The notes: generated by a model from the letters alone, not told the origin. DNA of 64,000 nt from Planctomycetaceae bacterium (GCA_947459185.1 CANHCU010000006.1:424-64423), one strand, 5' to 3'. Shown: positions 9,803-56,025, numbered from the stretch's first letter. Numbers and translations are program-made.

Positions 9803-9841
9803 TGACCTGGCCCCCTTAAACAGCACCGCTTCCAGCGGGAG
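9803..9841 (+). repeat. 38-bp IS-end-like motif, copy a (diverged)
   Basis: TGACCTGGCCCCCTTAAACAGC.... Its tip lies 51 bp outside the orfB-proximal tip of the IS at 9854, in the same orientation as that IS end. Confidence 0.45.
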
Positions 9842-9887
9842 AATCTGGGGGCGTGACGCTGCCCCCAACTTGGTACCAGCCGGGTTG

Positions 9888-10748
9888 TTAGCCATGCAGG
9901 GCCGGTAGCTGGGCATGCCCAGCTACCGGCCGCGCGAATTCGAACGGCGTCTGGTTGCCCAGAGCGCCATGCGGACGCACGCGATTGTAATCGTCCCTCC
10001 AAGCTTCTGTCACGGTCCGTGCTTCATCGAGTGACAGGAACCAGTGCCTGTTCAAGCACTCGTCGCGAAGCCGACCATTGAACGACTCGATGAACGCATT
10101 GTCCGTGGGCTTTCCTGGCCTGCTGAAGTCGAGCTTCACGCCGTTGAAGTACGCCCACAGATCCAAGCTCCTCGAGATGAACTCCGGTCCATTGTCGACT
10201 CGAATCGTCTGCGGCTTGCCACGCTGTGAAGCCACCCCCTCCAAGACCCGCACAACATCGTCTCCAGTCAATCGCTGACCGACGTCGATGGCCAGGCTCT
10301 CACGGCTATGGTTATCCACTAACGTCAGCAACCGGAATCGCTGCCAGCCGACCAGCTGATCGGCCACGAAGTCCATGCTCCAACTCTCGTTGGTCTGCGC
10401 GGTCGGTGGACGTGCCTCGCGGACCGGGACGCTCTTCCGACGACGTGGCTTTCGCCGCCTGATTCGGAGGCCTTCTTCGCAGTACAGCCGATACACGAGC
10501 TTCTTGTTCACGAGCCACCCTTCACGACGCAGAAGAACCCAGAGCCGCGGATATCCGAACTGCACCCGACTGGCCGCCAGGTCTCGAAGTCGTACGCGAA
10601 GCTCGGCCCGCGGATTACGCCTGCTCCGGTAACGGTTGGTCGTTCGGGAAAACCCGAGCACCCGACAGGCTCGACGCTCGGCAACCCGGTACGCCACCTG
10701 CATCTCCCGTACCAGAACACGCTGCACCGCGGGCCTCACAGTTTTTTT
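9888..10748 (-). CDS. IS3 transposase OrfB (DDE integrase core), expressed by -1 frameshift as OrfAB
   Basis: WSMDFVADQL, IRVDNGPEFIS and DNAFIESFNGRLRDECLN are present. The frame is open upstream through the AAAAAAA run at 10742-10748. Confidence 0.8.
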   Translation of the reverse strand, partial: KKTVRPAVQRVLVREMQVAYRVAERRACRVLGFSRTTNRYRSRRNPRAELRVRLRDLAASRVQFGYPRLWVLLRREGWLVNKKLVYRLYCEEGLRIRRRKPRRRKSVPVREARPPTAQTNESWSMDFVADQLVGWQRFRLLTLVDNHSRESLAIDVGQRLTGDDVVRVLEGVASQRGKPQTIRVDNGPEFISRSLDLWAYFNGVKLDFSRPGKPTDNAFIESFNGRLRDECLNRHWFLSLDEARTVTEAWRDDYNRVRPHGALGNQTPFEFARPVAGHAQLPALHG

Positions 10749-11002
10749 GAGAGCACGTCCTGCAGCATCTTCTTGTCGAGGCTCAAGTCCGCCACCAGCT
10801 GCTTGAGCTTCTTGTTCTCCTCTTCCAAGATCCGAAGCCGTCGCAACTCGGCAATCCCGAGCCCTGCGAACCGCTTCTTCCATCGGTAGAAGGTCTGCTC
10901 GCTGATCCCGAGCTTGCGGATGATCTCGGCCACCGAAGTGCCCGACTCGGCCTGCCTCAGCGCGAACGCAATCTGCTCTTCTGTGAAATGCTTCTTTCCC
11001 AT
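10736..11002 (-). CDS. IS3 transposase OrfA (HTH plus leucine zipper)
   Basis: MGKKHFTEEQIAFALRQAESGTSVAEIIRKLGISEQTFYRWKKRF...LEEENKKLKQLVADL. It ends just after the A7 slippery site. Confidence 0.85.
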   Translation of the reverse strand: MGKKHFTEEQIAFALRQAESGTSVAEIIRKLGISEQTFYRWKKRFAGLGIAELRRLRILEEENKKLKQLVADLSLDKKMLQDVLSKKL

Positions 11003-11315
11003 CCGAAAAACCCACCCTTTCTGGTGATGCCAAGGTTAAAAAACCTAACAACCCGGCTGGTACCAAGTTGGGGGCAGCGTCAGGCACGCTCGTAAGCCTC
11101 CGTCAGGAGGGCTCGTAGTTCGGGGCAGACCGGCACTACCCGGACGGACGACGGCTGCACCGGGAATTACGGCCCCTTGCGTGTCGGTGACTGCTCCGGC
11201 AATCGTGGCCTGTGGGGTCTGGGCGCTCATAGCCCAAGCAGCGGCCAGGAACATCATCGAGAATGTACCAAGCGAGTTAATCGCTCACTTGCATCGAGTC
11301 CATTCGATTCCAGCG

Positions 11316-12257
11316 TTAGTAGTCGTCCAGCGGAAAGACGCCCGCCCGGTGCCAACGCCAGAGCAGCGAGAATTGCCGGGCTACAATCCGCAGCGCCGTG
11401 GGCCAATGAATGGGCCGACGATTTTTGGCGATCCAGTCGCGGCAAACGCTGGCTCGCGCGTGGAGGGCTTCCGACTGCAGCCCAGGCATGGAGGCGTTGG
11501 CGGGCAGGATGGCGCAGAGCAGGAGTTGGAAGCGCATCATGGCGACGACGGCTTCTGGCGCATAGTGCTTCTCCCAAAAACGGACGTTGCCCTGATACAC
11601 AAGCCGCAGGTTATCCACGCGATTGAGTTCGGCCTGGCTGTGTTTGCCCTGATGCCGCACGGTCGCCTCCGGGCACCAGCCAATCCGATGGCCGCGCTGG
11701 CGCGCGCGCCAACAGAGGTCCGTCTCCTCCTGGTAGAGAAAGAAGGCCGGATCTGGGCCGCCGAGTTCGTCGAGTACCTCGCGGCGAATCATCAGGCAGC
11801 AGCCGTTTACCCAGGCGATTTCGTCGCGGTCCCAGCCCGGCAGCAGCGGCAGCATGCCTTCGCCGGGGTAGAAGCGCCGGGGCGGAAAGGGAACTCGGTC
11901 GCCTTCCTGGACGCTGGGGCCAACAATCGCGAACTGCGGGTACGAGTCCAGAAAGTGCCGCAGTTGTTTGACCAGCGTGGCGTCGAAGCGGGTGTCAGGA
12001 TTCAGGAACAGCACATAGCGGCCTGCGGCGCGGGCCAGGTTTTGCCGCTGAGCCGCAGAGTAGCCGAGGTTGCTGGAGTTGGCCTGCGTGCGGCCTGGCC
12101 AGAGGTTGGCCAGCGTTTCCACCGTGCCGTCGGTGCTGCCGTTGTCGGTGAAGAGAACCTCGTAAGAGACGTCACGCTGTGCGCGCAGGTCCTGGGTCAA
12201 GGCGTTCAGGACAGGAGCGGAATGGTAGGTGACGATGGCGATGGAGACGTCGGTCAT
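11316..12257 (-). CDS. family 2 glycosyltransferase
   Basis: VSIAIVTYHSAPVLNALTQDL...VLFTDNGSTDGT...VLFLNPDTRF (GT2 A-fold with DxD). Confidence 0.9.
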   Translation of the reverse strand: MTDVSIAIVTYHSAPVLNALTQDLRAQRDVSYEVLFTDNGSTDGTVETLANLWPGRTQANSSNLGYSAAQRQNLARAAGRYVLFLNPDTRFDATLVKQLRHFLDSYPQFAIVGPSVQEGDRVPFPPRRFYPGEGMLPLLPGWDRDEIAWVNGCCLMIRREVLDELGGPDPAFFLYQEETDLCWRARQRGHRIGWCPEATVRHQGKHSQAELNRVDNLRLVYQGNVRFWEKHYAPEAVVAMMRFQLLLCAILPANASMPGLQSEALHARASVCRDWIAKNRRPIHWPTALRIVARQFSLLWRWHRAGVFPLDDY

Positions 12258-13441
12258 AAATCAGCCCAGGTGGCGACCGCCGTGGGGACGTCGACGAATT
12301 GGCTGTGCGCCAGGCCGGGATGAGCGAGGATGCGGGCCAGGTTTCTTTCGAGCGCAGGCCGCCAGTGGGGCACGCCGAAGTCGCCGGTGCGGATCACCAT
12401 GACCAGAGGTTCCCGCGTTACGTGCGCGAGTTCAGTGTCCAGGTGGTTCAGCATCGCGCGCGGGGAGAGCGAGAGATTCAATGGATAACTGCCGCGCACC
12501 AGGTAGGGTGGCCGGCGGACGGGCCGCAGACGCAGGGGCGTGGTACTGAGGGGCAGAATCCAAAGGGGCTGATCGCCTGCTTGCAACAAGTTGCCCGCGC
12601 GGGGCCGGTACGGATGCCGAGGGGCGGGGCGGTAGTCGGGGAGCCATGCCGTGGCGAGCGGGTCGTCGAAGATGGGCATGTCCGGTAGGCCTGGCTCCAC
12701 GGTACATTCATAGCGAACGCCAAGGTCGATGAGGAGGCGGACGGCATCATTGCTCAGCCAGCGATCACCCATGCGGCTAGCCACGGGTGGGCGCCCGAAG
12801 TACCGAGTGAAGGCGTCGACGGCGCCGCGCAGGCAGTGCTCCAGCCACGCCACGTCGGTGAATTCGGAGTACCAACAGCCGGCGGGGTTCTGGCGGCAGA
12901 GGTGCGTGTGAATCCCCGCATGGTCCTGATGGCGCTCCATGCTGGCCATGAGAGCCGGGAGCGCGTGCGGGACGAAGTCGATGCGGCCGAAGAGCTTTTC
13001 CACCTGCGGGTCCAGGCGTAGGAACCAATTCAGCTGCACCGGCGTCCCCGTGCGCCGTGCGGCTTCGACCCGCCAGACGGCAATTGCCTCAACGGCGGCT
13101 TGGGTGCCGAGCCAAGGGTCCGTCTCGCCGGCCCGGCGTTCGTCCGGTTCGACGTCGAGCATCAACACAATCGGTCTGCGGTACGGCATCTCTCGATGAT
13201 AACGGTGCGGTGTCCTTAGAGTCATGTTACGCCGTACTCTTTTGCAAGCGGCCTTCGCTCCAACGCGACGGAGACCGAATGTCGTATTCATTCTAATGAA
13301 CCAATGGCGCGCGAAGGATAGCCCGATCAATGGCACTTCCGCAACGGTCTCCCGGCTGACGAGCGCCTCGTGAGCCTCCGGGGGAACGGCCTGGGCGGCT
13401 GCGCCTACTCCCGGGTCAAGCGCCGAGGGTCTCTTGTTCAA
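12254..13441 (-). CDS. hypothetical protein, possibly polysaccharide-deacetylase-like
   Basis: ATGA overlap with the downstream GT2. The body RPIVLMLDVEPDER...HAGIHTHL... loosely resembles deacetylase beta/alpha barrels. The start is uncertain; MPYRRP near 13190 is plausible. Confidence 0.5.
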   Translation of the reverse strand: MNKRPSALDPGVGAAAQAVPPEAHEALVSRETVAEVPLIGLSFARHWFIRMNTTFGLRRVGAKAACKRVRRNMTLRTPHRYHREMPYRRPIVLMLDVEPDERRAGETDPWLGTQAAVEAIAVWRVEAARRTGTPVQLNWFLRLDPQVEKLFGRIDFVPHALPALMASMERHQDHAGIHTHLCRQNPAGCWYSEFTDVAWLEHCLRGAVDAFTRYFGRPPVASRMGDRWLSNDAVRLLIDLGVRYECTVEPGLPDMPIFDDPLATAWLPDYRPAPRHPYRPRAGNLLQAGDQPLWILPLSTTPLRLRPVRRPPYLVRGSYPLNLSLSPRAMLNHLDTELAHVTREPLVMVIRTGDFGVPHWRPALERNLARILAHPGLAHSQFVDVPTAVATWADL

Positions 13442-13673
13442 ACGGTTATCCGGAAGCGGGCGGGCTCATGACGCTGCGAACGATGCCGTCGCCCCCAACA
13501 TCGCCTTTGCCGAGGCGGCTGACGATGACGTGCCATTTTAAGGCGGGCTTCCTCGGCCTGCCGTTCGGCGGGTGACCCGTCGGGCCCTTCGGGTTGATCT
13601 CTCGCGGCGCAACGGGGTGTGGATGTCGATCACCGGCACTCGTCGGGGCCGAGCGCAACACGCCCGCGCCTCG

Positions 13674-14447
13674 TCATCGGCGAGCGAGATCCGCCACCTG
13701 TGCGTCGGTGAGAGCTGCCGCGTAGATCCGCACGTCGTCGATCACACCATCCATGAACTCGCCGGCCCCTGTGTCGCCGATCCGGAGCACTCGCCCCGCC
13801 TGCAGCAGCTTTGGCTGGCCGCTGAACGGAATCACCTTCTTGTGATCGCCGTCGAGATAAAGGCGACATTCATTCTTCGTGCCGTCGATGACGAACGTGA
13901 TGCAATACCACCGTTCGAGGTCAAGGTCGCCACCCTGACCGTTCGTACCCACGTCGCCCTTGTAAAAGTTTACCTTGGTCTCGATCCATCGGCTTCCATC
14001 GCCGATGTCGCCATGCACTTTGTCGGTGTTGACTTTCATGTCGAAGAGATTCGCCCCGCCCTGCCGTGTGCCGACGATGCCGGAGAAAGTGGGCGGTTTC
14101 GTGAGCCACACCCAGGCCGACACCGTGAACGTTGACAGCTCCAGGTCGGCTGCGTGGGGAACCTCGACGTAGTGCCGTCGGCTGCGATCGAAGTGCAAGC
14201 CGCCGCCCATCTTCCCGGCATGCGGCGTGGCACCGTGCACAGTGCCATGGTGCGTGCCCCTGGCATCTCGGCCTTCAGCCCCTGCCTCGTCGAAGGTCCA
14301 GTGGGCGACCGGCGTCGGCATGTCGGTCTCCGCCAAGCAGATCCGAGGACCGACCACCAGACCACAGGCGGCCACGACGCCGCAGAGCATCGTCATACGC
14401 ATGAAAGACCTCGAAATGAGAACTGTTTGAAAGCCCACACGCACCAT
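13674..14447 (-). CDS. secreted LamG (concanavalin A-like lectin/glucanase) domain protein
   Basis: Signal-like MLCGVVAACGLVVGPRICLA, then HWTFDE...LHFD...TFTVSAWVW...CRLYLDG...GVIDDVRIYAAALTDAQV. Confidence 0.8.
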   Translation of the reverse strand: MVRVGFQTVLISRSFMRMTMLCGVVAACGLVVGPRICLAETDMPTPVAHWTFDEAGAEGRDARGTHHGTVHGATPHAGKMGGGLHFDRSRRHYVEVPHAADLELSTFTVSAWVWLTKPPTFSGIVGTRQGGANLFDMKVNTDKVHGDIGDGSRWIETKVNFYKGDVGTNGQGGDLDLERWYCITFVIDGTKNECRLYLDGDHKKVIPFSGQPKLLQAGRVLRIGDTGAGEFMDGVIDDVRIYAAALTDAQVADLARR

Positions 14448-15871
14448 CAGGCAAACACTGCCTCTACCGACTTTCCCTTGCCGTCTTCGGTGGCGTAGAA
14501 CGGCCTGCCCTCGATCTCGTAGACCGTCTTCGGGCTCACGCCCATGGCCGTGAAGAGCGTGGCATGCAGGTCCGTGATCGTGACGGGATTCTCCACCGCC
14601 ATGCAGGGCCGCTCGTCGGCGGTTTTCCCATACACGAAGCCCTTCTTCATGCCGCCGCCGAAGAGCACCACGGTCGATCCGCCCGTGAAATGCCGGTGCT
14701 GGCCGTAATGATTGGGCAACTGCAAAAAATCCTTGGGTGAACTGGCCTGATCGCTGGCCTTCGACCCCGGCTGACCTTCGGTGATCATGTCGCGGCTGAA
14801 CTCGCTGGCGATCACGACGAGCGTGCGATCCAGCAGGCCTCGGGTCTCCAGGTCGCGAATGAGCGTGGCAATGGGCCGATCGATCTCCTTGTGGAGTTTA
14901 TCCACGGTCTCGTGACCGCGGTCATGCGTATCCCAGTGGACGAAGGGGATGTATTCGGTCGTCACTTCGACGTAACGGGCACCGTTTTCGACCAGACGGC
15001 GGGCGAGCAGGCAGCCGCGGCCGAATCTCCCGGTGTCATACCGCTCCCGGACATCCTTCGGCTCGAGCGTGATGTCGAAGGCTTCGCGTTCCTTCGCGCC
15101 GAGGAGCCGATGAGCATTGTCGAGGCTCCGTAGCATCGACTCCTGGTGGTAGTCGCTGGTGAATTCCGCATGCGGGGCGGCTTTCGCCAGTTTCTTGAAG
15201 TGCTCGTAGCGGCTGGCAAAGCGGCGGGCATCCATTCCACTGGGCGGTCGGACGGCAAGCGCAGCCTGTTCCGGGAAAGGGAGATTCATCGGCCCGAACT
15301 CGCTGCCGAAGAACCCGGCCGTGATGAAGGCCTTGATCTCCTCGTTTTCGCCGATCCCCTCGAGCCGCTGGCCGATGTTGACGAAGGCCGGCATCACCGG
15401 GTTTCGCGGGCCGAGCACCCGGCTCATCCAGGCGCCCAGGTGCGGACATGCCACCGTCTGCGGCGGCACGTAGCCCGTGTGCCAGTGATATTGATGCCGC
15501 GAGTGCAGGATACTGCCCAGGTCGGGCTGCACGTGGGAGCGGATCAGCGTGGCGCGGTCGAGAACGCTGGCGATCTCCGGCAGACCGTCGCAGATATGGA
15601 CGCCGTCGATCGCCGTCGGAATCGCCGGAAACGTGCTGATCACGTCAGCCACGGCCAGCCCCGGCTCGAACGGCTTGTATTTCTTAGGGTCGAACGTGTC
15701 AGGTGCGGCCATGCCGCCGGCCATCCAGAGCACGATGATCGCATCGGCCTTCGCGGCGGGATGAATGATCGTCGCGGCTTCGGTGCCGGCCCTCGCTCGT
15801 GGCTCAGGGAGCGCGAGCGTGGCCGTCGCCGCCGTGGCGAGGGATCGAAGCAGTTCACGACGGGATTGCAT
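14447..15871 (-). CDS. DUF1501 domain protein (sulfatase-like fold, Tat-type signal)
   Basis: MQSRRELLRSLATAATATL is followed by a typical DUF1501 body. It lies directly downstream of a DUF1549/DUF1553 gene, the canonical planctomycete pairing. Confidence 0.9.
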   Translation of the reverse strand: MQSRRELLRSLATAATATLALPEPRARAGTEAATIIHPAAKADAIIVLWMAGGMAAPDTFDPKKYKPFEPGLAVADVISTFPAIPTAIDGVHICDGLPEIASVLDRATLIRSHVQPDLGSILHSRHQYHWHTGYVPPQTVACPHLGAWMSRVLGPRNPVMPAFVNIGQRLEGIGENEEIKAFITAGFFGSEFGPMNLPFPEQAALAVRPPSGMDARRFASRYEHFKKLAKAAPHAEFTSDYHQESMLRSLDNAHRLLGAKEREAFDITLEPKDVRERYDTGRFGRGCLLARRLVENGARYVEVTTEYIPFVHWDTHDRGHETVDKLHKEIDRPIATLIRDLETRGLLDRTLVVIASEFSRDMITEGQPGSKASDQASSPKDFLQLPNHYGQHRHFTGGSTVVLFGGGMKKGFVYGKTADERPCMAVENPVTITDLHATLFTAMGVSPKTVYEIEGRPFYATEDGKGKSVEAVFA

Positions 15872-15880
15872 GAAGGTCTC

Positions 15881-18385: not shown

Positions 18386-18627
18386 TCGTTCGACTGTTCC
18401 ATCAACGCACGTCAGTTTAGCGTCGTCAATGACGATGCTGCCGGTCGGCAGCGTCCCTCGAACGGCTGCGGAACGTTAGCACCGCAGGCCCGGTCGCCGC
18501 CGCGCCCCCCTGGGCGAGGCCTATTGCTAACGTTTGCCGCCGAAACACCTTCCTGTCAACCGCGAAAAAGCCGAAAAACTGACGTAGATTCGGCTCGGGC
18601 TTTATTCCGCACCAGGAGCATGCATCG

Positions 18628-45770: not shown

Positions 45771-45824
45771 GCCTCGGACTGCGCGCGGCCGGTAGCTCAG
45801 CATGCCCAACTACCGGACTGCCAG
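45771..45824 (+). mobile_element. short IS3 right-end scar
   Basis: GCCTCGGACTGCGCGCGGCCGGTAGCTCAGCATGCCCAACTACCGG matches the subterminal palindrome region of the IS (9900-9950, reverse complement). It is preceded at 45707-45765 by a SprT-like relic (NPAAFDRACHDAAWGWA). Confidence 0.5.
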
Positions 45825-45834
45825 GGCGAACACC

Positions 45835-46464
45835 TCAGGCAAGACTTTGGCTCGTCACATCCTTGATCCAATGACGACGCCACGAACCAACCTTTATTCG
45901 GCGCATCAGAGAGCAGACCACGAAGCCATTCTTCGCATGGGCTCGCAACGCGGCATGATTCTCGGGGAGCGTGGCGCGGATGGCCATTTGCGTGCCCTCC
46001 TCACGGCAGCGTCGCAGCAATTCGTTGCTCAATGCTGGCGCGATACCCTGACCACGAAACTGCGGATCGGTATAGGCTTCGCACAGGTACACCGTTGCGG
46101 ACGGTAAGGGCAGTTCGTATTCCAAATACTCGATCCTGGCCGAGCGACCGACGACCCACATGGCGCCGACCAACCGCCCGTTCCAGCGACCGAGCAGGCA
46201 GCGCTGGCGGCTCTCCAGACGGCTGAGCAGTTCCTTCGGATCCGTGGCTGGTCGCATGGTCCGGTACTCACCGACCCCCTCCGGGAGCAGCCATTCCATC
46301 CTGATGGGCAACCGGCAGTCAACCCGCGACAGCGGCTCGTTCAGGGAGCGACGGAGCAGAAACAAGCGACGGTAGCCGAGCACATCGACTAGTTTGAACC
46401 AGAAGCTGCGTATTCCCTCACGCTGCAAGGTTTCCCATGCACGAGACATCCGTGACCCGTTCAT
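45835..46464 (-). CDS. GNAT family N-acetyltransferase
   Basis: YLCEAYTDPQFRGQGIAPALSNELLRRCREEG (acetyl-CoA binding motif A). Confidence 0.8.
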   Translation of the reverse strand: MNGSRMSRAWETLQREGIRSFWFKLVDVLGYRRLFLLRRSLNEPLSRVDCRLPIRMEWLLPEGVGEYRTMRPATDPKELLSRLESRQRCLLGRWNGRLVGAMWVVGRSARIEYLEYELPLPSATVYLCEAYTDPQFRGQGIAPALSNELLRRCREEGTQMAIRATLPENHAALRAHAKNGFVVCSLMRRIKVGSWRRHWIKDVTSQSLA

Positions 46465-47318: not shown

Positions 47319-47348
47319 GGGAGGAATCCTGCGGGCTCTGTCGTCGAT

Positions 47349-48635
47349 TCAAGAATGGAGTGAGCTCTTCGTGAGCATAGGACACTTTGCGCAACTGCGG
47401 ACTTTCACCTCGCAGCGTTCGAGATCGCACCGCACCGTATGCCCCTGCAGTGCAAGCCCGATTCGTTCGAGCCGTTGGTCGTGACGGCCTTTGATCAGCA
47501 CGACGTCACCCGGGCGCAACTCCTCCAGCAGCAGAGCCGAGGCCCGCGCGACACTGCTGCCCGCATCGTGGAGAGTGGCTTCGTCGTGGCCACCACGCCG
47601 GGCTCCCGCGGCATATCGCTGAAAGTTGCTCCCGATGATCACGAGTGAGTCGGTGACACGCCCAAACCGCTCCCCGAGGTCCCGATAGATCGGTCCTTGG
47701 CTCCCCGGTGGCTCGGTAACTTCCCCGAGAACGGCCAGACGGCGATCTGCGGGAACGTGTGCGAGCACATTCAAAGCCGGGCCGAAGGTTTCCAGGCCGG
47801 ATTTAAAGTCATCGCGCAACAGCCACGCTCCGTTGGGGAGCGCAACCGGCTCCAAGCGGCCGGGGGTGGGTGGCAAGTGGGTGAGACGGGGCGAGACCGC
47901 GTCGAACGCGAGTCCCGCGGCCTCCGCCACGGTGATGGCGGCGAGGATTGGGTAGAGCATGGTCTCCCCGAGCAACGGCACGTGCATCGCCCGCGTGACG
48001 TTGGCAGTCTCGAGTCGGAACCGGGTGCCGTGCGGCCAATCCAGGGCGACCTGTGCTGCCCGCACGTCGTTGCTGTCCCCCAGCCCGAACATGATCACGC
48101 GGGCCGCGGTCTGTGACTTCATCCACACCACGTTGGGGTCGTCGCCGTTGAGCACGGCCACGCCAGACCTGGACAAGGCACGCACCATCGCCGCCTTTTC
48201 GTGCCGGGTTGTTTCGATGGTTCCCAAGGACCGACCGTGTTCCGTGCCGATGCTTGTCACGACCACAACATCTGGTCGGAGAAGTGCGGCATACGTCGCC
48301 ATCTGACCGACGTCATCGATTCCCACCTCGATGACCGCATGCCGGTGCCAGGGCCTGATGCGCAACACGGCGCCAGCGACGTCAGACCACGCATTCCAGA
48401 GGTTTTGCCGATGCAAAGGCAGGCCCAAGGCAACGAGCGTGGCCCTGGTCGTCGTGGTCTTGCCATAGCTGCCGACAACGGCGATCAGGCATGTGCGCCG
48501 TGCCAACGTGCGACGATGCAGCCACGCGAGGACCGAGACAAGCGGCCAGCAACGAAACCACACGCCGCGGGCCACCTGCCACCGTCCAATCGGCGTCCGC
48601 AGCATGGCTGCGATTTCACTCACACGGTAACGCAT
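47349..48635 (-). CDS. Mur ligase family protein (MurF-like central and C-terminal domains, Cys-rich tail)
   Basis: IAVVGSYGKTTTTRATL P-loop, VVVTSIGTEH, LRDDFKSGLETF, and the tail VRCDLERCEVKVRSCAKCP. Confidence 0.75.
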   Translation of the reverse strand: MRYRVSEIAAMLRTPIGRWQVARGVWFRCWPLVSVLAWLHRRTLARRTCLIAVVGSYGKTTTTRATLVALGLPLHRQNLWNAWSDVAGAVLRIRPWHRHAVIEVGIDDVGQMATYAALLRPDVVVVTSIGTEHGRSLGTIETTRHEKAAMVRALSRSGVAVLNGDDPNVVWMKSQTAARVIMFGLGDSNDVRAAQVALDWPHGTRFRLETANVTRAMHVPLLGETMLYPILAAITVAEAAGLAFDAVSPRLTHLPPTPGRLEPVALPNGAWLLRDDFKSGLETFGPALNVLAHVPADRRLAVLGEVTEPPGSQGPIYRDLGERFGRVTDSLVIIGSNFQRYAAGARRGGHDEATLHDAGSSVARASALLLEELRPGDVVLIKGRHDQRLERIGLALQGHTVRCDLERCEVKVRSCAKCPMLTKSSLHS

Positions 48636-50494
48636 TCCAATCGCTTTCTAAACATGTCGTCCCACAATTGTGTTCCGGCGATCAAAAGTAGCAACCGGCT
48701 ATGGTCTGCCACGCCCGCCTCGTGGGCGCGGAGCAGCCCTGCCACGCAGGACGCATCGAAATAACCCGTGTCTCGTATGCGAGACGCCGACAAAGAATCC
48801 CGCACGACATCCGGCAACGGGGGCCGCATCCAGTCTTTCACCGGCGCCGACAAAGGACGCTTGCGTCGCCGGCATATGGGGGGCGGCAACACCCCGCGCA
48901 TTGCCCGCCTTAGGACGGCCTTTTCCTGAAGTCCGCGCAACTTGACCCACGGCGGTATCGTCGCGCAGAACTCCACCAGCGGGTGATCGAGAAAGGGGAC
49001 GCGGGCCTCCAGCGAGTACGCCATCGAGTGGCTGTCCAAGTGTTGCACCACGGACTCTGACAGTCGCATTTTGAAGTCCAAGTACTGCAGCTGGGCAAAT
49101 CGGTGCCAGCCTGCGAATTCTGCAGGCAACGGTGACGACTCTACGCCGCCCACTGCGTTATCCAGCAACAATCCGTCGGGCAGGTCGGCATTGGTCGCCC
49201 CGCCGGACAACGCCCGAAATCTCGAAACACCCATCGCGGCCGGCGCAAGCAGGATCGTTGAGGCACCGGGCCAGCGGCGGCGTAATACAGCCGCAGCCAA
49301 TCGCCGCAAGGCGAGTGGCCACCTGGCGGCTGGTGCCAGTGCCTTGTCGGCGCGATACCAGGCGTAGCCACCCAGTGCCTCGTCGGCACCTTCGCCGCAC
49401 AACACGACCTTGACCTCGCGGGCGCTCGCTTCCGCGATCAACATGCGCGATATGTCCACCCCTTGCCCGAAGGGCTGCTCCCGATGCCAGACGGCTCGGG
49501 GCAACAGCCCGCAGTGCTCACGCCGGCACTCGAGTCGCCGTCCAATCAGCTGGTACGACGGGTATTCATCGAGCAATCGATGGTACCTCAGTTCGTCCAC
49601 CTCTGGATTCTCGAAACCAAGTGTAAATGTCGGCAGTGGGCGAAGCAGTTCCATCTGCATCAGGGCTGCGACGGCACTCGAATCGATGCCCGCGCTCAGC
49701 CAGACGCCGACGGGTGCGTCGCTCCGCAGATGCAGTCGCACCGAGTGCGTCAGTTCGGCACGTAACTGATCTGCCCAGGCGTCATCGGAGCGACTGCGGT
49801 CATAGTCGGCGGCCGCGGGAAACGTAAGGTCCCAGTATTGGCGCGTCGCCACCGTTCCAGACTCGAAGGTGAGGCATTCGCCGGCACGCAGACGGTTGAC
49901 GCCGGCAACCATGCTGCGTGGCGTGCGAACGTAGCCGAACGTGAACACGTCACGCAGGGCGTTGTGATCCATGCACGCGGACACGCCGCCCGAAGCCAGG
50001 ATGGCCTTGAGTTCCGACCCGAAGACCACTCCTTCGTCCGTAAGGGCGTAGTGCAGGGGCTTGATGCCGAAGCGGTCGCGGGCCAGGGTCAGCCGCCGTC
50101 GGCGGGCGTCCCATACCGCGAGGGCGAACATGCCACGCAACTGCTCCACGAAGGCGGAAGGATCCTCCTCGTAGAGGTGAACGATCACCTCGGTGTCGGA
50201 CTGGGTGCGAAACCGGTGCCCGGCCGCCTGCAGCCGCGCCCGTAGTTCGACGAAGTTGTAGATTTCGCCGTTGCAAATCACGACGACTGATCCGTCCTCG
50301 TTGGCGATCGGTTGGTCGCCCGTGGCGGTGTCGATGATGCTCAGCCGGCGCATTCCCAAGCCGATGCCGGGACCGAAGTGGAATCCCTCGCTATCGGGGC
50401 CACGATGCCACATGATCTGCGTCATGCGGCGCAGTCGCGACTCATCCGTGCCGCGATTGGGGTCGGTACAGGCGATTCCCGCGATTCCGCACAT
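48620..50494 (-). CDS. asnB: asparagine synthase (glutamine-hydrolysing) family amidotransferase
   Basis: The N-terminal MCGIAG (catalytic Cys2) is present, with the PP-loop variant LSAGIDSSAVAAL. 624 aa. Confidence 0.9.
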   Translation of the reverse strand: MCGIAGIACTDPNRGTDESRLRRMTQIMWHRGPDSEGFHFGPGIGLGMRRLSIIDTATGDQPIANEDGSVVVICNGEIYNFVELRARLQAAGHRFRTQSDTEVIVHLYEEDPSAFVEQLRGMFALAVWDARRRRLTLARDRFGIKPLHYALTDEGVVFGSELKAILASGGVSACMDHNALRDVFTFGYVRTPRSMVAGVNRLRAGECLTFESGTVATRQYWDLTFPAAADYDRSRSDDAWADQLRAELTHSVRLHLRSDAPVGVWLSAGIDSSAVAALMQMELLRPLPTFTLGFENPEVDELRYHRLLDEYPSYQLIGRRLECRREHCGLLPRAVWHREQPFGQGVDISRMLIAEASAREVKVVLCGEGADEALGGYAWYRADKALAPAARWPLALRRLAAAVLRRRWPGASTILLAPAAMGVSRFRALSGGATNADLPDGLLLDNAVGGVESSPLPAEFAGWHRFAQLQYLDFKMRLSESVVQHLDSHSMAYSLEARVPFLDHPLVEFCATIPPWVKLRGLQEKAVLRRAMRGVLPPPICRRRKRPLSAPVKDWMRPPLPDVVRDSLSASRIRDTGYFDASCVAGLLRAHEAGVADHSRLLLLIAGTQLWDDMFRKRLECVTV

Positions 50495-50518
50495 GGCGTC
50501 GTTTCATGGGGGCAGGCC
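50495..50518 (-). repeat. 38-bp IS-end-like motif, copy e (partial)
   Basis: GGCGTCGTTTCATGGGGGCAGGCC lies immediately upstream of the asnB start codon (minus-strand sense). Confidence 0.35.
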
Positions 50519-50567
50519 GCCTTTCCCTTCGATCTGACAGCTGCGACTAGGATAGCCTCCGCGGACA

Positions 50568-50835
50568 TCATGGAAAAATCCAGGATTGGCAACGGCACTT
50601 CCGCTCTGCGACCACTCTCCCGAGCAATGCCGTCCGCTCAGCCTCGGCCATAGTCATGCCGGCCACGAGGATCACGGCGAGGGCGAGCAACTCGATGCGA
50701 TCAGCCGAAAGTGCGTCGCATTCTGCGTCGCACTTGGACACGACCCTCTGATTTCGCGACTGAAACCGCGTTTGTTCGCTTCCTGTCCCCGCCACTTTAC
50801 GCCCGCCGGGCCATCCCTGGCCGCTGCCGGCTCAT
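50568..50835 (-). repeat. small-ORF-bearing dispersed repeat, copy 5 (open 75-codon ORF, GTG start)
   Basis: MAGTGSEQTRFQSRNQRVVSKCDAECDALSADRIELLALAVILVAGMTMAEAERTALLGRVVAERKCRCQSWIFP*. Confidence 0.7.
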
Positions 50836-50882: not shown

Positions 50883-52013
50883 TCAGGCCCCTACGTCCCC
50901 CAGCAGGGCCACGAGTCGTGTCCGAAGAACGTCGATGTCGTAGTAGGCACGCTCGCCACATGAACCGGTTCCGGCGAACGGCAGGAAGTGCGACTCGGCC
51001 CCAGACAGGCTATCGCACATCAGCTGATTGAGCGTGAGCCCGCTGTTGCGTCGCGGTGTGCCCACATTGATCACGGGTGTGCCCGGTCGGACGAACACGC
51101 TGTTGTGCAGTGCCGATCCCTCGGCGCCAGCGATAATCTCAGCGCGTTGATACAGCGCCACCTGCCGCGCGAACGACCACTGCTGAGGGTGGAGGATGCG
51201 GAACCCAGCCGCAGTGAACACTCGCTCAACCTGTCGCTCGTTGCGCATCGGACGGTTACCATGAACTCGACGTCGCGAGAAGTAGAGACGCAAAGGCCCG
51301 TCGCCGGGCCAGCCCCGCAGGCGGTGAAGAAACCCCGGGCCGCAATCGGGCTGCGCGAGGCAGTGCTCCACAACACGTCGGTATGTAGCGGCCATGGCCG
51401 GTTCCACACCATTGCTGATCTCCAGCTGGGCGGTCGGCAGTACGACTCGCTCGAACCGTAGCGGCCGGCGCACCACGATCACCCTATCCAGCGGAATGCC
51501 GAAGCAGGCGAAGCACTCCCGGGCCGGTTGGAACCAGCGCGGCGTCAATGGCAGGCCGTAGAGATGGTGGAAGACGTAGTGGTCGAACGGGCCAAGTTGT
51601 TCGAGTGCCCAAAACCGAGAGAGGGTTTCGAGCAAAAAGTGGCCGTAGTGACGGGAGGAAATCCCTAGGTAGATGCTGCGACCAGGCACCCACCGTGCCG
51701 ACTGGTGCGGATCGATGTGATCCGGATCGCCGAGAATAAAATGCTCGCCTCTCGCACTGCGCTGCGAGGCTGGGCAACGTGAGCCGTCGCGGTCATAAAG
51801 GCATCCGCGAATGAGCTTTTTGCGCTGCGGCATTGCTACCACGGCCCGAGGCGTGGCGATGGCGTGCTCCAACTCCACGACCTGCTGGCTCCATGCAGGT
51901 AGCGGCACGCAGCGGTGTCCCCCGCGGGCTCCGGGCACGGGCCTCTCCCTGGGCAGGAGACTGCTGCTCCGTCGGCGACGGCTATCGGCGGCGTCCGCTG
52001 CTCGTTGTTCCAT
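50883..52013 (-). CDS. GT61/DUF563 family glycosyltransferase
   Basis: HYGHFLLETLSRFWAL, YFSRRRVHGNRPMRNERQVERVFTAAGFRILHPQ and AGAEGSALHN. The start is uncertain; MPQRKK at 51833 is an alternative. Confidence 0.8.
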   Translation of the reverse strand: MEQRAADAADSRRRRSSSLLPRERPVPGARGGHRCVPLPAWSQQVVELEHAIATPRAVVAMPQRKKLIRGCLYDRDGSRCPASQRSARGEHFILGDPDHIDPHQSARWVPGRSIYLGISSRHYGHFLLETLSRFWALEQLGPFDHYVFHHLYGLPLTPRWFQPARECFACFGIPLDRVIVVRRPLRFERVVLPTAQLEISNGVEPAMAATYRRVVEHCLAQPDCGPGFLHRLRGWPGDGPLRLYFSRRRVHGNRPMRNERQVERVFTAAGFRILHPQQWSFARQVALYQRAEIIAGAEGSALHNSVFVRPGTPVINVGTPRRNSGLTLNQLMCDSLSGAESHFLPFAGTGSCGERAYYDIDVLRTRLVALLGDVGA

Positions 52014-52797
52014 TCAGACGCCTCATGAGGGAGTGAGCGGCCTGTGTCAGGCTGCGGGGAGACGACTGCAATTGCAGAAGCCTCTCGCGAATGGTCCATG
52101 GGCCGTCGTCGATCAACCACGTGGTTCCGACGCACTTGAGCCGACGCCCTCTCCTGCGTGCCGATCTGGATGCAGGGTCCCGAATCGGAAACGAGTACCC
52201 ATCGCTCCAATTCCAATCGTCCCCGGCGATGACGGCGTCAGGAAAAAGCTCATCACACACCGGGATCTCGTGACCCTTCTTGTCGGCGTCGATGTACACC
52301 ATGTCGGGCCGTAGGCCCAGCGAGTGCAACTCCGGCAGTACGTCCAGCGACATACCTCGCACGTGAACGATCCGGTGCCGGACATCCCACATGGAGGAAA
52401 TGAACGACCGATAGACACCTTCCGGGGCATGGAGTTGGTCACGATAGGCACGGCCGATGCGATGGGCGGCGATTCCCGCCCCCGGGTCGATCAGGTCAGG
52501 CCAGGGGTCGACGCAGACCACGACGACCTCCCGCGACGCGGCCAGCCACTGACGGGCCGATCCCCCGAGGAACGAGCCGATCTCGAGCAGCACGTTGACG
52601 CCGCGCGATGCGATCGCGTCAGTGACCAGTCGCCGCCCTCCGTAATCCAGGCTCCACAGGATCGGCGACTCGGACGGCCGTTCCGTTGGCCAGGGGTATC
52701 GCGCCTTGAGGCTTGCGAGCGACTCGCGGGCCTGCAGCGCAGCACGACTCCCTCGCGCGGTCGCGGTGTCGGCGATGTTTGCTGCTCCTGTCGTCAT
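51982..52797 (-). CDS. class I SAM-dependent methyltransferase
   Basis: VNVLLEIGSFLGGSARQW (motif I) and MVYIDADKKG. The ATG at 52797 gives an ATGA overlap with the upstream stop. Confidence 0.8.
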   Translation of the reverse strand: MTTGAANIADTATARGSRAALQARESLASLKARYPWPTERPSESPILWSLDYGGRRLVTDAIASRGVNVLLEIGSFLGGSARQWLAASREVVVVCVDPWPDLIDPGAGIAAHRIGRAYRDQLHAPEGVYRSFISSMWDVRHRIVHVRGMSLDVLPELHSLGLRPDMVYIDADKKGHEIPVCDELFPDAVIAGDDWNWSDGYSFPIRDPASRSARRRGRRLKCVGTTWLIDDGPWTIRERLLQLQSSPRSLTQAAHSLMRRLNGTTSSGRRR

Positions 52798-53759
52798 GCC
52801 GCACGTGCGCTCGCGTCGCGAAGTCCGCGAGACTGCCACAGTCCCGCCCATGCTTTCCCGATGAGGTATGCGGTTCCCATGACGCAGAGAACCGGCAGGG
52901 CGAGCGGCAGCAGCAGCAGGCTCGATGGTTGCGTCCGGGCGATCTGCTGTAGCCTGCCTGCCAGTCGGCCGAGGACGCCATGCCCGGGCCTATCCGGGGC
53001 CATGGCACCAAGATACGGCCTGCCCGTCTCGCGGGCAGTGATGGCACGGATCGATGCAGCATCGCTGCCGAGACGGTAGTAACGGGCGATGACTTCAGAC
53101 GGCGGAACGACCGCGTGCCAGCCGCGCGCCCTGGGCTGCCGGAGAATGACTCCTGACTCCCGCATGACTCTCGCCATGTGAATGAGGTTCTGCCCGCGGT
53201 AGAGTTCGGCCGGATCGGGGAGCGGGACGCGTGTCAAGCTCGTCCTGCGGGCTGCGACGTTGTTCGCCCAGTACGTCGTGGTCGGGGCAAGGGCGGACTC
53301 GCCCGTGAGCCTCGGGAAATTGAACGTCATGGCAAATGCCAGCGAATACGGACCAGTGATCGGCGTGGTCGTCTCGCCGGCGATCATGTCGGCGTCCGGA
53401 CGTTGGCGAAAGCCATCGAGCAAGGCCTCGAGCCAGCCAGCTTCATAGACGACGTCACCGTCGCAGAACACGACGATTTCCGATCCCGTCTCGAGTGCGC
53501 CGGCAAGTTTCAAGTCGATGTACGACGCGCCGTTAGGTCTCTTCACGATGGTGACCCAAGGGTGGCGGCGGTGGATCTCGGCCAGAACTGTCTCGGGCAC
53601 CACGCCTCCGTCCGCCACGAACACGCCATCGGCCAGTCGCACGAGATCACCCTGCGACTTGATGCTGTCCAGGCAGCGGAAGAGTTCGTCGAGATCGACG
53701 ATGGCAAGGTTGTCCGTCTCGACGACGATGCAGAACGATGGAAACACCGTCTTATCCAT
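52794..53759 (-). CDS. GT2-like glycosyltransferase with C-terminal TM segment
   Basis: FCIVVETDNLAIVDLDELFRCLDSIKSQ...VVFCDGDVVYEAGWLEALL. Confidence 0.7.
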   Translation of the reverse strand: MDKTVFPSFCIVVETDNLAIVDLDELFRCLDSIKSQGDLVRLADGVFVADGGVVPETVLAEIHRRHPWVTIVKRPNGASYIDLKLAGALETGSEIVVFCDGDVVYEAGWLEALLDGFRQRPDADMIAGETTTPITGPYSLAFAMTFNFPRLTGESALAPTTTYWANNVAARRTSLTRVPLPDPAELYRGQNLIHMARVMRESGVILRQPRARGWHAVVPPSEVIARYYRLGSDAASIRAITARETGRPYLGAMAPDRPGHGVLGRLAGRLQQIARTQPSSLLLLPLALPVLCVMGTAYLIGKAWAGLWQSRGLRDASARAA

Positions 53760-53762
53760 GGC

Positions 53763-54611
53763 TCACTTCCTGATGACGTAGCCGCTCAAGCGGCCGATGG
53801 CCCATGCACAGAGACCCACCGCCAGCAAAAAGGCCAGCGTCGACGCCCGCAGGAAGCCGTAGGACTTGTTATGGACCGTTTTCCGAAAAACTGCCAGCCG
53901 ATCGCCCATCGTCAACGGCCGCACCGCGATCACGCGACGATAGGACTGCATGCTCCGGCCATAAGTGAACACCTTCCGCAGGTACGTTGCGACCCCGTCC
54001 ATCTCCAGGTGCGACACGATCATGGCGGGCACGAATGCTAGCGCGGAGCATCCCTCGCCATCGACGACGCGCCTCATGAAGATCGTGTCGGAGCCGCGGC
54101 TGCGATCGTCGAAGGGGCCATGGCGATCCCACGCCGCTCGCGTCACTCCCATGTTGTTCGTGTAGCCGTAGTATTTCGTGGGCTCTCCCGAGGTGAGCGC
54201 CCACTCGTCTCTCGTCGTGTCGTAGTCGCCGAGCATCCGATTGAGGCCGGTGTCGGGGGTCGGCCGGCGGACGCCAAGCGCCACGGCGACCCCCGGTTGT
54301 CGCATCGCTTCGAACAAGTGTCGCAGCCACGATTGTCCGGGCACGCAGTCAGGGTCGATGAAGGCGAGGATGCCACCAGTCGCGGCCGCCACGCCGGTGT
54401 TGCGAGCCATGTAGGCGCCGGGGCGGCTCTCAAGAAGCAGCCGCACCCGCGGGTCGGCCCGGAGGATCTTCGCCGAATCATCAGTCGATCCGTTGTCCAC
54501 GAAGATCCACTCCACGTCACCGTCGAAATCGTCCTGGGCTTGGAGTCCTGCCAGGCAGGCCGGCAAGGTCGCCGCAGCATCGAGCACCGGTACAATAATC
54601 GAGACGTCCAT
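53763..54611 (-). CDS. family 2 glycosyltransferase (paralogue of 24977-25891)
   Basis: MDVSIIVPVLDAAATLPACLAGLQAQ...WIFVDNGSTDDS...ILAFIDPDCVP. I chose the ATG at 54611; the track ORF extends to 54686. Confidence 0.9.
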   Translation of the reverse strand: MDVSIIVPVLDAAATLPACLAGLQAQDDFDGDVEWIFVDNGSTDDSAKILRADPRVRLLLESRPGAYMARNTGVAAATGGILAFIDPDCVPGQSWLRHLFEAMRQPGVAVALGVRRPTPDTGLNRMLGDYDTTRDEWALTSGEPTKYYGYTNNMGVTRAAWDRHGPFDDRSRGSDTIFMRRVVDGEGCSALAFVPAMIVSHLEMDGVATYLRKVFTYGRSMQSYRRVIAVRPLTMGDRLAVFRKTVHNKSYGFLRASTLAFLLAVGLCAWAIGRLSGYVIRK

Positions 54612-54652
54612 ATCGTCTAGTACCGGCTTTCCCAGCCGAGTAGCGCCTCTTC

Positions 54653-55264
54653 TCAGAAGTGAAACACGTCGGTGCGTGTAACCCATTTGCGGCCAGGGCC
54701 GATGCCCTCGTGTCGCGTCACGTCACGGGCGCGGGTGTCGCCGATCTGCAGATCGAATCGCCAGGCGCCATCGAGCACAATCACCCCGCCCACCCGAACG
54801 AACTGTTCGGCCTGGCGAAAGCAGGTAAGCCGATCGACGCCCTGCCGGTGCTCGTGGCCATCCACCAGAATGACGTCGTGGGGTTGGTCGAGCGAGAGTA
54901 CGTAGGGGCTTTGCGCGTACGGCTCGACACTCGAATCAGCTGGGCACAGAGTCACGTTTTCCAGGGATTCCTCGGCGAGCCGGTCACGCACGATCCGCTG
55001 CCAACGCGGGTCATCTTCGACCGAAATCACTCTCTTCGCGCGTTTGGCGAAAAAGAGGGTCGACCCTCCCGTTCCATATTCGAACACGGAGTGCGAACGA
55101 GTCAGGAATCGGTCAAGAAAATCGATCGCTCCCCACGCCAGCCATGGCAGCCCGCTGCGGATGGGGAGCACATACCACGACGTCAGCCAGCGAGACACGT
55201 CGGTCGGTCGGGTGGCAAGTGAGTGGCCCAGTCGCAATACCTTGTCGGGAACTGATTCATTCAT
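54653..55264 (-). CDS. class I SAM-dependent methyltransferase-like protein
   Basis: VFEYGTGGSTLFFAKRAKRVISVEDD and VILVDGHEHR. Start MNESVP at 55264. Confidence 0.7.
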   Translation of the reverse strand: MNESVPDKVLRLGHSLATRPTDVSRWLTSWYVLPIRSGLPWLAWGAIDFLDRFLTRSHSVFEYGTGGSTLFFAKRAKRVISVEDDPRWQRIVRDRLAEESLENVTLCPADSSVEPYAQSPYVLSLDQPHDVILVDGHEHRQGVDRLTCFRQAEQFVRVGGVIVLDGAWRFDLQIGDTRARDVTRHEGIGPGRKWVTRTDVFHF

Positions 55265-55479
55265 CGTGCGTGTGCAAAGGAAGGTTAGGGCCGACCGGCA
55301 GCGCCGCCGCACGCGTCCGCTGGGCGGTGAGCCGCCGCGGAAGCACGGCGGCGATCGGTCCCGACTCCGAGATTCCGTCCCGAGCTCAAAGAGTAGTCTC
55401 CGCCACGCGGCGTATTCAAATGCTCAGGAATGTGATGGTGCGGACATGGACAGGGGAGCGACCGCTTCTCGCGTCGTAA

Positions 55480-55842
55480 ACCGCCCTGGCGGGCGCGAGT
55501 TGCAGCCGGTTCTGGCGGGTCTTCGATGGGAATGCCCTCCAGCCCTCTCCGTCGTCGTTCGGGCCCTCCTGGCTGCCCGAAACGATCCTGGGCCCGTGCC
55601 TTCGGCGGGCAAAACGGTTCGTGGTCCATCTTAACCGGAACCTGGGCGAGCCGCAGGCCGTCGAGGTGCTCTGCCACGAATGGGCACACGCGCCGGCCTG
55701 GAACTACTCGCTCGACCGGTTAGCGCGGACGCCCAGCATCGATCCGGCGGAGTTCGACAGGGCCAGCCATGACGAGGCTTGGGGCGGCGCCTACTCCTGA
55801 GTCTGGCGGTCCTATCAGGAGGTCATCCGCGAGGCGGGGTAA
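55480..55842 (+). pseudogene. SprT-like zinc metalloprotease gene relic (no start codon, in-frame TGA)
   Basis: ...RFVVHLNRNLGEPQAVEVLCHEWAHAPAWNYSL...FDRASHDEAWGGAYS*VWRSYQEVIREAG*. It has HExxH plus a downstream H...W. The TGA is at 55798-55800. Confidence 0.5.
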
Positions 55843-55859
55843 GGCCCCGCGTCAACGGC

Positions 55860-55975
55860 CGTTGCTCTGGGCAACCGAACACCGTCGGACTTCGCGCGGC
55901 CGGTAGATGGGCATGCCCATCTACCGGCCCTGCATGGCTAACAACCCGGCTGGTACCAAGTTGGGGGCAGCGTCA
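55860..55975 (+). mobile_element. IS3-family right-end relic (last ~115 bp)
   Basis: It encodes ALGNRTPSDFARPVDGHAHLPALHG* and ends with the IR GGCTAACAACCCGGCTGGTACCAAGTTGGGGGCAGCGTCA. Confidence 0.85.
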
Positions 55976-55987
55976 CTGAGCAAAACC

Positions 55988-56025
55988 CTCACTTAGAAAC
56001 TGGCGTTATTCATGGGGGCAGGTCA
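55988..56025 (-). repeat. 38-bp IS-end-like motif, copy f
   Basis: The reverse complement reads TGACCTGCCCCCATGAATAACGCCAGTTTCTAAGTGAG. Its tip lies 50 bp outside the IS relic tip, and it supplies the last codons of the gene 56010-57818. Confidence 0.55.

Follow-up and report, generated by a model that had tools for sequence, protein, structure and literature searches.

A mosaic, probably additive-type flexible region in a freshwater planctomycete, with junctions marked by insertion-sequence relics and a recurring two-gene unit

How is an island of surface-glycan genes rebuilt in an uncultured bacterium, and do the repeats between its operons take part in the rebuilding or only lie there? In aquatic bacteria the diversity of surface glycans is believed to be a driver of phage-host dynamics, and to our knowledge the rebuilding of glycan islands is poorly known beyond a few cultured models. 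The question is raised here by a stretch of 64,000 nucleotides from a Planctomycetaceae bacterium (GCA_947459185.1 CANHCU010000006.1:424-64423), the whole of which was analysed and is called the window. Between 9.8 and 56 kb it carries an island of gene modules separated by a small set of recurring sequences, which an earlier note on this DNA had taken for a cassette-array-like mosaic and a shuffling hot spot for surface-glycan genes. The reading favoured here, to which we assign a probability of roughly 70%, is that the island is a mosaic, additive-type flexible region, the modules of which were juxtaposed by rearrangements scarred by two kinds of dispersed repeat, i.e., insertion sequences (IS) of the IS3 family and a unit of two convergent genes. 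The locus offers a sequence-level picture of island rebuilding in uncultured freshwater Planctomycetota, with modules that occupy core contexts in distant relatives lying side by side.

All the repeats listed in the earlier note (an IS3 element and its relics, copies of a small open reading frame (ORF), a 38-bp motif and SprT-like relics) were recovered by self-BLAST of the window, with E-values from 1e-7 to 0, far beyond chance. They belong to two IS3-family elements, named ISw and ISx here, and to the unit, in which the small ORF (copies c1 to c5) is paired with a gene for an HExxH protein. From 9.8 to 56 kb there are 12-13 intergenic gaps of more than 150 bp, and about 10 of them, counted by eye from the ORF map, hold such a repeat. 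The statement that nearly every junction carries one is thus sound for most gaps, but the gap 13441-13674 has none.

Evidence on the rearrangement comes from relatives, compared as contigs (given L-numbers here). In a sister population, the orthology of which is inferred from a uniform nucleotide identity of 92-95% that stays steady in unique genes, the same modules are found with different neighbours, and at each of five junctions (24783, ~42248, 45751-45759, 50604, and 55808) the homology to the window stops where a repeat has its edge. At a sixth, ~23597, where the gene at 23611-24171 adjoins units in L021, L023, and L026, no repeat was detected in the window. Contig L014 joins window 25506 to 24783, read leftward, to 45759 to 45049 through two small-ORF units with a nucleotidyltransferase-like gene between them; its homology stops exactly at 24783, which is both the tip of an ISx end and the edge of the GT2 module, and on the other side at 45759, the edge of a module of three genes (PIG-L, GT4, and AMP-dependent ligase). 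In L041-L044, from four samples, this trio (window 45751 to 42248) is present at 92.1% identity, flanked by a partial unit and a SprT-like stub on one side and by an intact unit in direct orientation on the other, and beyond the units are OprB and DUF1559 genes instead of the GNAT or GT1-GH99 modules. L050 (92.6%) tracks window 45691-50604 and then departs exactly at the edge of c5, while L019 (92.6%) tracks 53199-55808 and continues into a normal intact small-ORF unit at the point where the window instead has an ISw relic, an ISx end, and a beta-helix gene; L032 is collinear across c4. The alignment expected from the earlier note, with whole modules varying between relatives and breaks falling in the repeats, was therefore obtained.

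More distant relatives carry two of the modules with no repeats beside them. In L045 (76%) the trio lies without any unit beside Pterin_4a, MoxR, DUF58, and BatA genes. In L048 and L049 (83-84%) the AsnB operon lies between tuf-rpmG-secE-nusG and CHAD-proS, and the nucleotide homology covers window 50493-45834 only, i.e., from the AsnB start codon to the GNAT stop codon, which in the window are abutted by an ISx remnant and an ISw relic, respectively. These contexts may be where the two modules came from.

The intact IS element of the island, ISw (9854-11082, minus strand, 1229 bp; orfA 10736-11002, orfB ending at 9888), has the features of the IS3 family: orfA and orfB with helix-turn-helix (HTH) and DDE domains, terminal inverted repeats that start with TG, and a length within 1.2-1.5 kb. 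Its orfB product matches Pfam HTH_21, rve, and rve_3 and scores 238 bits against NCBIfam transpos_IS3 (cut-off 160); that of orfA has a precomputed Pfam HTH_Tnp_1 match and scores 49 bits against the same NCBIfam model, below its cut-off. The inverted repeats are 41 nt long, 98% complementary, and begin 5' with TGACGCTGCCCCC. A target-site duplication of 3-4 bp was sought and is absent (flanks ...GGGGGCG and GGCACGC, i.e., GCG against GGC), and the two flanks do not match each other, only one of them being ISx sequence. It is on these grounds that the intact ISw is taken to be a recombinant copy. Three relics, all on the plus strand, remain elsewhere: 35366-36068, with the 3' half of orfB and the right inverted repeat (the alignment spans 35366-36119, 755 bp, 83% identical to 9803-10557, inverted); 55853-55976, with the last ~113 bp including the right inverted repeat (55864-55976 aligns at 93% to 9853-9965, inverted); and 45758-45832, from which the terminal repeat is lost and only an internal palindrome region is left (80% to 55868-55943, 76% to 9886-9961).

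The 38-bp motif is the terminal repeat of the second element, ISx, of which the window has solo ends of ~50 bp and no body. An intact ISx of 1308 bp, in which orfA carries HTH_Tnp_1 and orfB carries rve, is found at 6555-7862 of L038 (contig Ga0620610_0000018 of metagenome 3300072388). The same metagenome contains the window itself, which an exact-protein look-up assigned to contig Ga0620610_0000052 (278 kb), its first letter falling near base 130 there. As the intact ISx is a separate element that carries the motif at both of its ends, the possibility that the window's own IS has the motif for its outer end was ruled out. The left end of ISx (inverted repeat left, IRL) starts with TGACCCGCCCCCCTTAAACAGCACC, a type found at window 9803, 24783, and partly 36119, and the right end (inverted repeat right, IRR) finishes with AAACTGGCGACTTTCATGGGGGCAGGTCA, as at 32371 and 56025; four stretches (9803-9849, 32326-32371, 36075-36119, and 55978-56025) match the ISx ends at 82-87%. 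The 17-mer core TTCATGGGGGCAGGTCA, allowing up to three mismatches, has 5 matches in the window (9803, 32355, 36156, 50503, and 56009) where 0.17 are expected, and none of 100 shuffles reached 5; the copy at 24783 and the tip at 36119 of the copy at 36081 were located with the 12-mer TGACCTGCCCCC. The ends, all on the plus strand, are as follows: IRL-type at 9803-9853 (tip 9803; 87% to ISx 1-47) and at 24783-24832 (tip 24783), at the left edge of the six-glycosyltransferase module; IRR-type at 32324-32371 (tip 32371; 83% to ISx 1263-1308, with an exact match to the 17-mer) and at 55978-56025 (tip 56025; 85% to ISx 1261-1308); an end adjoining the ISw relic at 36069-36119 (tip 36119), with a further tip-like box at 36156-36172; and an IRR-type remnant at 50495-50519, which directly abuts the AsnB start codon. 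The motif copy that the earlier note had placed at 50495 is therefore present, as a 24-bp remnant only.

ISw or its relic begins 50-52 bp inside the ISx ends at 9803, 36119, and 56025, and also in the relative L030 (845-900). Because the ends involved are both of the left and of the right type, these insertions are independent and not copies of one junction, and the three to four nested cases suggest, as far as sequence goes, that ISw targets sequences resembling IS ends. IS elements are at present active in the population, since of two assemblies with 99.99% identity, each from a different sample, one has a 1282-bp IS within ISx that the other lacks (L037 6389-7670, against ~7300 in L038), the first 124 bp of this insert in L037 being the end of contig L038. 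The IRL-type tip at 24783 and the IRR-type tip at 32371 face outward round the six-glycosyltransferase module, as they would in a composite transposon; their flanks (CCGC and TGCT) show no duplication, and among the relatives the homology of L014 stops at 24783 and the right end is covered by none.

The second kind of repeat is longer and encodes protein. Copies of the small ORF were recovered by self-BLAST at 2971-3284, 22686-22847, 32167-32323, 42248-42404, and 50605-50832, with pairwise identities of 73-84% and E-values from 5e-5 for the weakest pair to 1e-49, most of them at or below 1e-25. On the minus strand of the window, c1 (3015-3230, GTG start at 3230) is an intact member of the ~85-aa family, and c5 (50604-50832) is near-intact, with a chimeric hairpin. 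The remaining three are relics: c2 (22686-22847) is a C-terminal half with an in-frame stop, c3 (32136-32323) has lost its first ~12 codons and its hairpin to an ISx end, and c4 (42248-42404), where L041 has an intact unit at the same position, contains internal deletions and a frameshift. In an alignment of 25 non-redundant copies from the window and related contigs the frame is open for ~72-85 codons, the start codon alternates between ATG and GTG, and variability at the three codon positions is 0.10, 0.09, and 0.22, the contrast being stronger from codon 22 on. The small ORF is thus protein-coding (consensus MAGTGTEQTRFHSGNQQVVSKCDAKCDAISADRIELLARAVVLVAGMRIPEAAREAVLARVTAELANTSEQRPP), and a non-coding RNA, a miniature inverted-repeat transposable element or a repetitive extragenic palindromic (REP) sequence was ruled out by this codon-position pattern and by a conserved start that alternates between ATG and GTG.

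Among 5.8 billion proteins searched, homologs of the small protein form 335 clusters, all hypothetical and without Pfam domains, most of the homologs being on contigs shorter than 5 kb; the unit is a probable cause of fragmented assemblies. An AlphaFold model shows a two-helix hairpin with pLDDT (the model's confidence score) above 85 for residues ~31-70 and a disordered N-terminus, and Foldseek found no match to it in the PDB below E = 3. In a complete unit the small gene and an HExxH gene for 219 aa (L033 376-1035) point towards each other, with ~10 nt between their stop codons. The motif reads HEWAH or HEWAY, and the best Pfam scores of the protein are SprT-like at E 0.15 (12.4 bits, cut-off 25.6) and Peptidase_M78 at E 0.26. 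It is therefore not a member of the SprT-like family (PF10263), and "SprT-like" is used as a label only. Pfam, NCBIfam, and PHROGs contain no family for either protein, nor did they reveal a DNA-binding domain in them. The HExxH gene survives in the window on the plus strand as a pseudogene at 55437-55842 (HEWAH, N-terminus missing, and a frameshift near 55549-55565 where tblastn gives two pieces in different frames), as a 3' relic at 45700-45765 (translation ending in NPAAFDRACHDAAWGWA; 82.5% to L015 3432-3494), and as a 3' end relic beside c1 at 2925-2989 (78% to 55804-55868), which ends in ...EVIREAG* like the 55.8-kb copy.

Directly upstream of the small gene is a GC-rich palindrome, the core of which, GCCATGGATGGC, is invariant while its outer arms vary; on the strand opposite the small gene it is followed by a run of T, giving a terminator-like site that faces the HExxH gene. 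In the window the hairpin is found at 3233-3270, 42360-42395, and 50800-50832, and it recurs in L014, L016, L017, L020, L022, L037, and others. At c1 the palindrome and T-run, together with a second small hairpin, occupy 3233-3295 on the plus strand, with a terminator-like match at 3256-3273. Among 17 distinct copies compensatory changes occur in 6 of 12 pairs and the covariation is 0.288 against 0.096 in shuffled alignments, none of 500 shuffles being as high; the signal collapses in slid registers. The hairpin is hence under selection for pairing, and it is adequately explained as an intrinsic terminator under selection at the RNA level. The arms fall into five covarying types, and in ~8 of 25 copies, including c1, c4, and c5, the left and right types are mismatched. 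Because of these chimeras it is concluded that units have recombined with one another, with crossovers between the arms. Units are mosaics in another respect as well: a "MRIHCDAK" piece that is separate upstream of c1 (3404-3452) forms a single reading frame with the remainder of the ORF in L041-L043 and in protein P0094. The upstream extension in which it lies (3404-3474, minus strand) consists of this duplicated piece and an ISx-tip-like box, TCACCTGCCCCC, and is 91-93% identical to L037 5570-5636 and L041 727-786. At the end of contig L016 (1917-2083) a hairpin segment of ~61 bp is present in three tandem copies.

These elements have probably acted on the island in the following way. Independent modules, i.e., blocks of six and five genes for glycosyltransferases and methyltransferases, a pyruvyl-transferase pair, the BshB1-like trio, and an AsnB-Mur ligase operon, would have been brought side by side. 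The multi-copy, lineage-specific unit would fill spaces between operons and supply 250-650 bp of portable homology; ISx would often land in or beside a small-ORF unit; and ISw would have inserted repeatedly 50-52 bp inside ISx ends and then decayed. The outcome is a nesting hierarchy, with units in inter-operon spacers, ISx in or beside units, and ISw inside ISx ends. Neighbouring DNA would have been moved and truncated as IS copies recombined with one another, through deletions next to them, and possibly by composite transposition. That the rearrangements, whether homologous or IS-mediated, used the repeats as substrates and did not merely pass them by is our inference, as is the order of events.

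Several observations weigh against a mosaic built by way of its repeats, and some of them point to a rival history in which the locus is essentially inherited vertically, IS fragments and units pile up passively in the few tolerant spacers, and the differing neighbours are chimeric contigs or paralogs. Same-population contigs (99.9% identical, at least four assemblies; ENA ERZ27280167, ERZ28613002, ERZ27263785, and Logan runs) are collinear with the window over ~0-60 kb, the IS at 9.8 kb included, and so show no ongoing heterogeneity at the island. Units also lie in stable core contexts: in L051-L056, identical in six samples, a unit has an outer-membrane protein gene on one side and a PATR giant gene on the other. 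Many of the informative contigs are also short, with their ends in or close to repeats, which invite chimeric assembly, and L014, L019, and L050 are single contigs. Other points tell against our reading in a more general way. No target-site duplications or matching IS pairs that would prove any single transposition event were found; in L038, from the window's metagenome and presumably from the same organism, a unit lies beside a nonribosomal peptide synthetase gene and IS elements; and the units, 73-88% identical to one another, are a poor substrate for RecA-type recombination. Chimeras are, however, hard to reconcile with arrangements that were seen independently more than once, that of L041 in assemblies of four independent samples and that of L048 in the mutually agreeing L049, and a steady identity of 92-95% across all modules is expected of sister-population orthologs, not of paralogs. 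The flanks of the AsnB operon, moreover, are wholly different from the start and stop codons outward. Passive accumulation is therefore considered improbable.

At the other extreme it is tempting to speculate that the unit is a dedicated recombination or docking element, the palindrome core GCCATGGATGGC being the crossover site at which modules are exchanged as cassettes, either by a site-specific enzyme or because cleavage of the hairpin provokes repair from another copy. The unit would then actively promote the exchange of multi-gene modules in Pirellulales, an attC-like element for whole operons in which the two proteins would serve for accessory functions or for addiction. About a third of the copies are chimeric with crossovers between arms, the BshB1-like trio of L041 has directly repeated units on its two sides, modules are separated by units in two unrelated contigs (the window and L040, in which three units or SprT-like stubs separate glycosyltransferase and methyltransferase modules), and the hairpin segment is tandemly triplicated in L016. 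Against this stand the ~55 ORFs scanned, among which no integrase or recombinase beyond the IS transposases was found, and a predicted protein that is a mere two-helix hairpin without a fold match. A palindrome with a T-run is sufficiently explained as a terminator selected at the RNA level, and the breakpoints in relatives fall at several positions in the unit, at its 3' edge (50604), inside the ORF (L041 and L014), and at its far upstream end (24783), rather than all at the hairpin. No pair of filled and empty sites showing autonomous movement of the unit was seen among the loci compared, and such active exchange, and a dedicated junction system altogether, strike us as very improbable. A regulatory role is somewhat easier to imagine, the unit being a paralogous regulator and insulator at operon boundaries, where glycan operons would be kept apart by a strong terminator and a small protein that binds DNA or RNA, much as regulator pairs act at the head of polysaccharide loci, and its presence at breakpoints being secondary. 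Selection has conserved both the coding sequence and the hairpin, the unit is always found in the space between operons, intact copies persist in stable contexts, and the terminator faces the convergent gene, SprT-like transcripts from which would run antisense through the small ORF. On the other hand three of the five copies in the window are dead relics although the adjacent operons look intact, a DNA-binding domain is not detectable, and many copies lie beside non-glycan genes. This role appears unlikely on present evidence, although it agrees with all the observations and is compatible with the favoured reading, that of a mosaic rearranged at its repeats. If the unit does promote recombination it would be a new tool-like element; if it does not, it is an abundant and so far unknown gene pair that deserves a name.

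Mosaics of this kind are already known. Additive flexible genomic islands were defined for Alteromonas macleodii (PMC3698932), and like those islands the present region has a number of modules that varies between close relatives, is conserved in part, is rich in transposable elements, and includes genes for cell-envelope glycans. It differs from them (PMC3698932) in that the window has no tRNA, integron, or integrative and conjugative element as an anchor and that the junctions consist of IS3-family relics and a lineage-specific two-gene unit. The glycan islands described in the same study (PMC3698932) are mostly of the "replacement" type, swapped as a whole, whereas the glycan region of the window is itself modular. 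The insertion of ISw resembles that of IS911, the transposase of which prefers targets with IS-end sequences when OrfA is limiting, as reported in PMC3299598, which cites its ref. 28 (Rousseau et al., 2007): ISw lies repeatedly just inside the ends of another IS3-family element, which fits such an IS-end preference. The parallel is limited in that the targeting by ISw is inferred from three to four nested insertions and that no target duplication is found at its intact copy. Both ISx and ISw are planctomycete elements that were not described before. Also undescribed, and abundant, is the junction unit, with its 85-aa gene, HExxH gene, and covarying palindrome.

Other known repeats resemble the unit in part. 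Like integron attC arrays, the island has recurrent imperfect palindromes between functional units, the arms of which vary round a conserved core. Unlike an integron it has no IntI that could be found, its modules hold 2-6 genes on both strands with their own starts (integron cassettes being single genes, mostly without promoters, that share one orientation), and the repeat, 250-650 bp long, contains a protein-coding gene and has a T-run after the palindrome like a terminator. The description as a cassette array is for these reasons apt only in a loose sense. REP sequences and bacterial interspersed mosaic elements (BIME) are targets of the IS3-family elements IS1397 and ISKpn1, and the unit is likewise a dispersed intergenic hairpin repeat that attracts IS3-family insertions; it is, however, about 10 times longer and encodes proteins, and it is from co-location only that a specificity of ISx for the unit is suspected. 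The capsule loci of Bacteroides are led by paralogous regulator pairs, upxY and upxZ, which share with the unit the recurrence of paralogous small genes at the boundaries of polysaccharide clusters. No sequence or domain relationship exists between them, and the small genes of the unit have in many cases decayed to relics, face an HExxH gene convergently, and occur also away from glycan loci.

The gene content of the modules, read from Pfam scans of the ORFs, bears on the view that the region is a hot spot for surface-glycan genes. The shuffling is supported, but it is not specific to glycan genes, and units are also found at stable non-glycan sites. The host is a freshwater Pirellulales bacterium: genes of kinds usual in Planctomycetota lie inside and outside the island (DUF1559 with an N-terminal methylation motif, DUF1501, PSCyt1/2/3, and PSD1-5), the GC content of the window is ~63%, and a DNA pattern made from the small repeat matches metagenome-assembled genomes of "Pirellulales bacterium" and contigs of several Joint Genome Institute (JGI) metagenomes. 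A tRNA scan found no tRNA or tmRNA in the whole window, Rfam at gathering thresholds gave zero matches over it, and the Pfam scan of ~55 ORFs found no integrase domain, ORFs below 80 aa being only partly scanned.

Glycan functions are confirmed for a GT2 gene at 11316-12257 and for four of the proposed modules. The six-glycosyltransferase module (24977-32101, plus strand) encodes GT2, GT4-like, GT1, Anp1/Gly_transf_sug, Stealth, and GT8 proteins; the two-gene module (32484-34593, plus strand, of low GC content) a nitroreductase-like protein and a polysaccharide pyruvyl transferase; the module at 36246-41961 (plus strand) a GT1-GH99 fusion of 1080 aa together with unknown genes of 469 and 342 aa; and that at 50883-55312 (minus strand) GT61, a methyltransferase, two GT2 proteins, and a second methyltransferase. 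The block at 13674-22573, by contrast, is not a glycan module, as it consists of planctomycete-specific genes (Laminin_G_3, DUF1501, PSCyt/PSD, and DUF1552). What had been taken for one module at 42428-50494 is two, divided at the 45.7-kb junction. One is the trio at 42428-45674 (minus strand; Pfam and NCBIfam), with a PIG-L deacetylase named BshB1-like by JGI, GT4, and an AMP-dependent ligase, which travels as a single block in relatives at 76-93% identity and the product of which, instead of a surface glycan, may be a low-molecular-weight thiol or similar glycoside; the other is the operon at 45835-50494 (minus strand), with AsnB, Mur ligase, BKACE, and GNAT genes. Two modules besides 13674-22573 may make no surface glycans. 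The GC content is 51-57% in 32484-34593 and 55-56% in 56010-57965, against 62-68% in their neighbours, which suggests that these two are of foreign origin.

Genes at the junctions had been described as often truncated or broken, and this is right for the frameshifted SprT-like gene and for the beta-helix gene (56010-57965, minus strand), the last five codons and stop of which (...QVDLPP*) are supplied by the ISx tip (56010-56025), so that its native C-terminus was probably cut off. It is not borne out for 22845-23249, which retains a complete Methyltransf_24 domain, and a comparison of 22845-23444 with paralogs was uninformative on whether this methyltransferase is broken. The supposed broken gene at 34640-35360 is at best a C-terminal fragment of a sulfatase: the ORF at 34640-35419 (minus strand), a possible truncated fragment that abuts the IS relic and overlaps it with its 5' end, matches SGSH_C in Pfam at E 7e-4, below the cut-off.

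Some minor observations concern the surroundings of the units. In L025, L028, and L035 the units have GT2-like and GT4-like neighbours. The 186-aa genes beside units in L038 and L041 were compared with the gene at 23611-24171 and rejected as its homologs. The nucleotidyltransferase-like ORF between the two units of L014 (1433-2080) has a weak match to DUF6036 (E 0.037) and is absent from the window. Window 1972-2146, which is single-copy there, recurs at 77-83% identity beside small-ORF units in L017, L021, L026, L033, and L040. The gene beside the island at 57996-60275 encodes a CotH kinase-like protein that has GH65 as its C-terminal domain, and in related contigs DUF4956 comes next to it.

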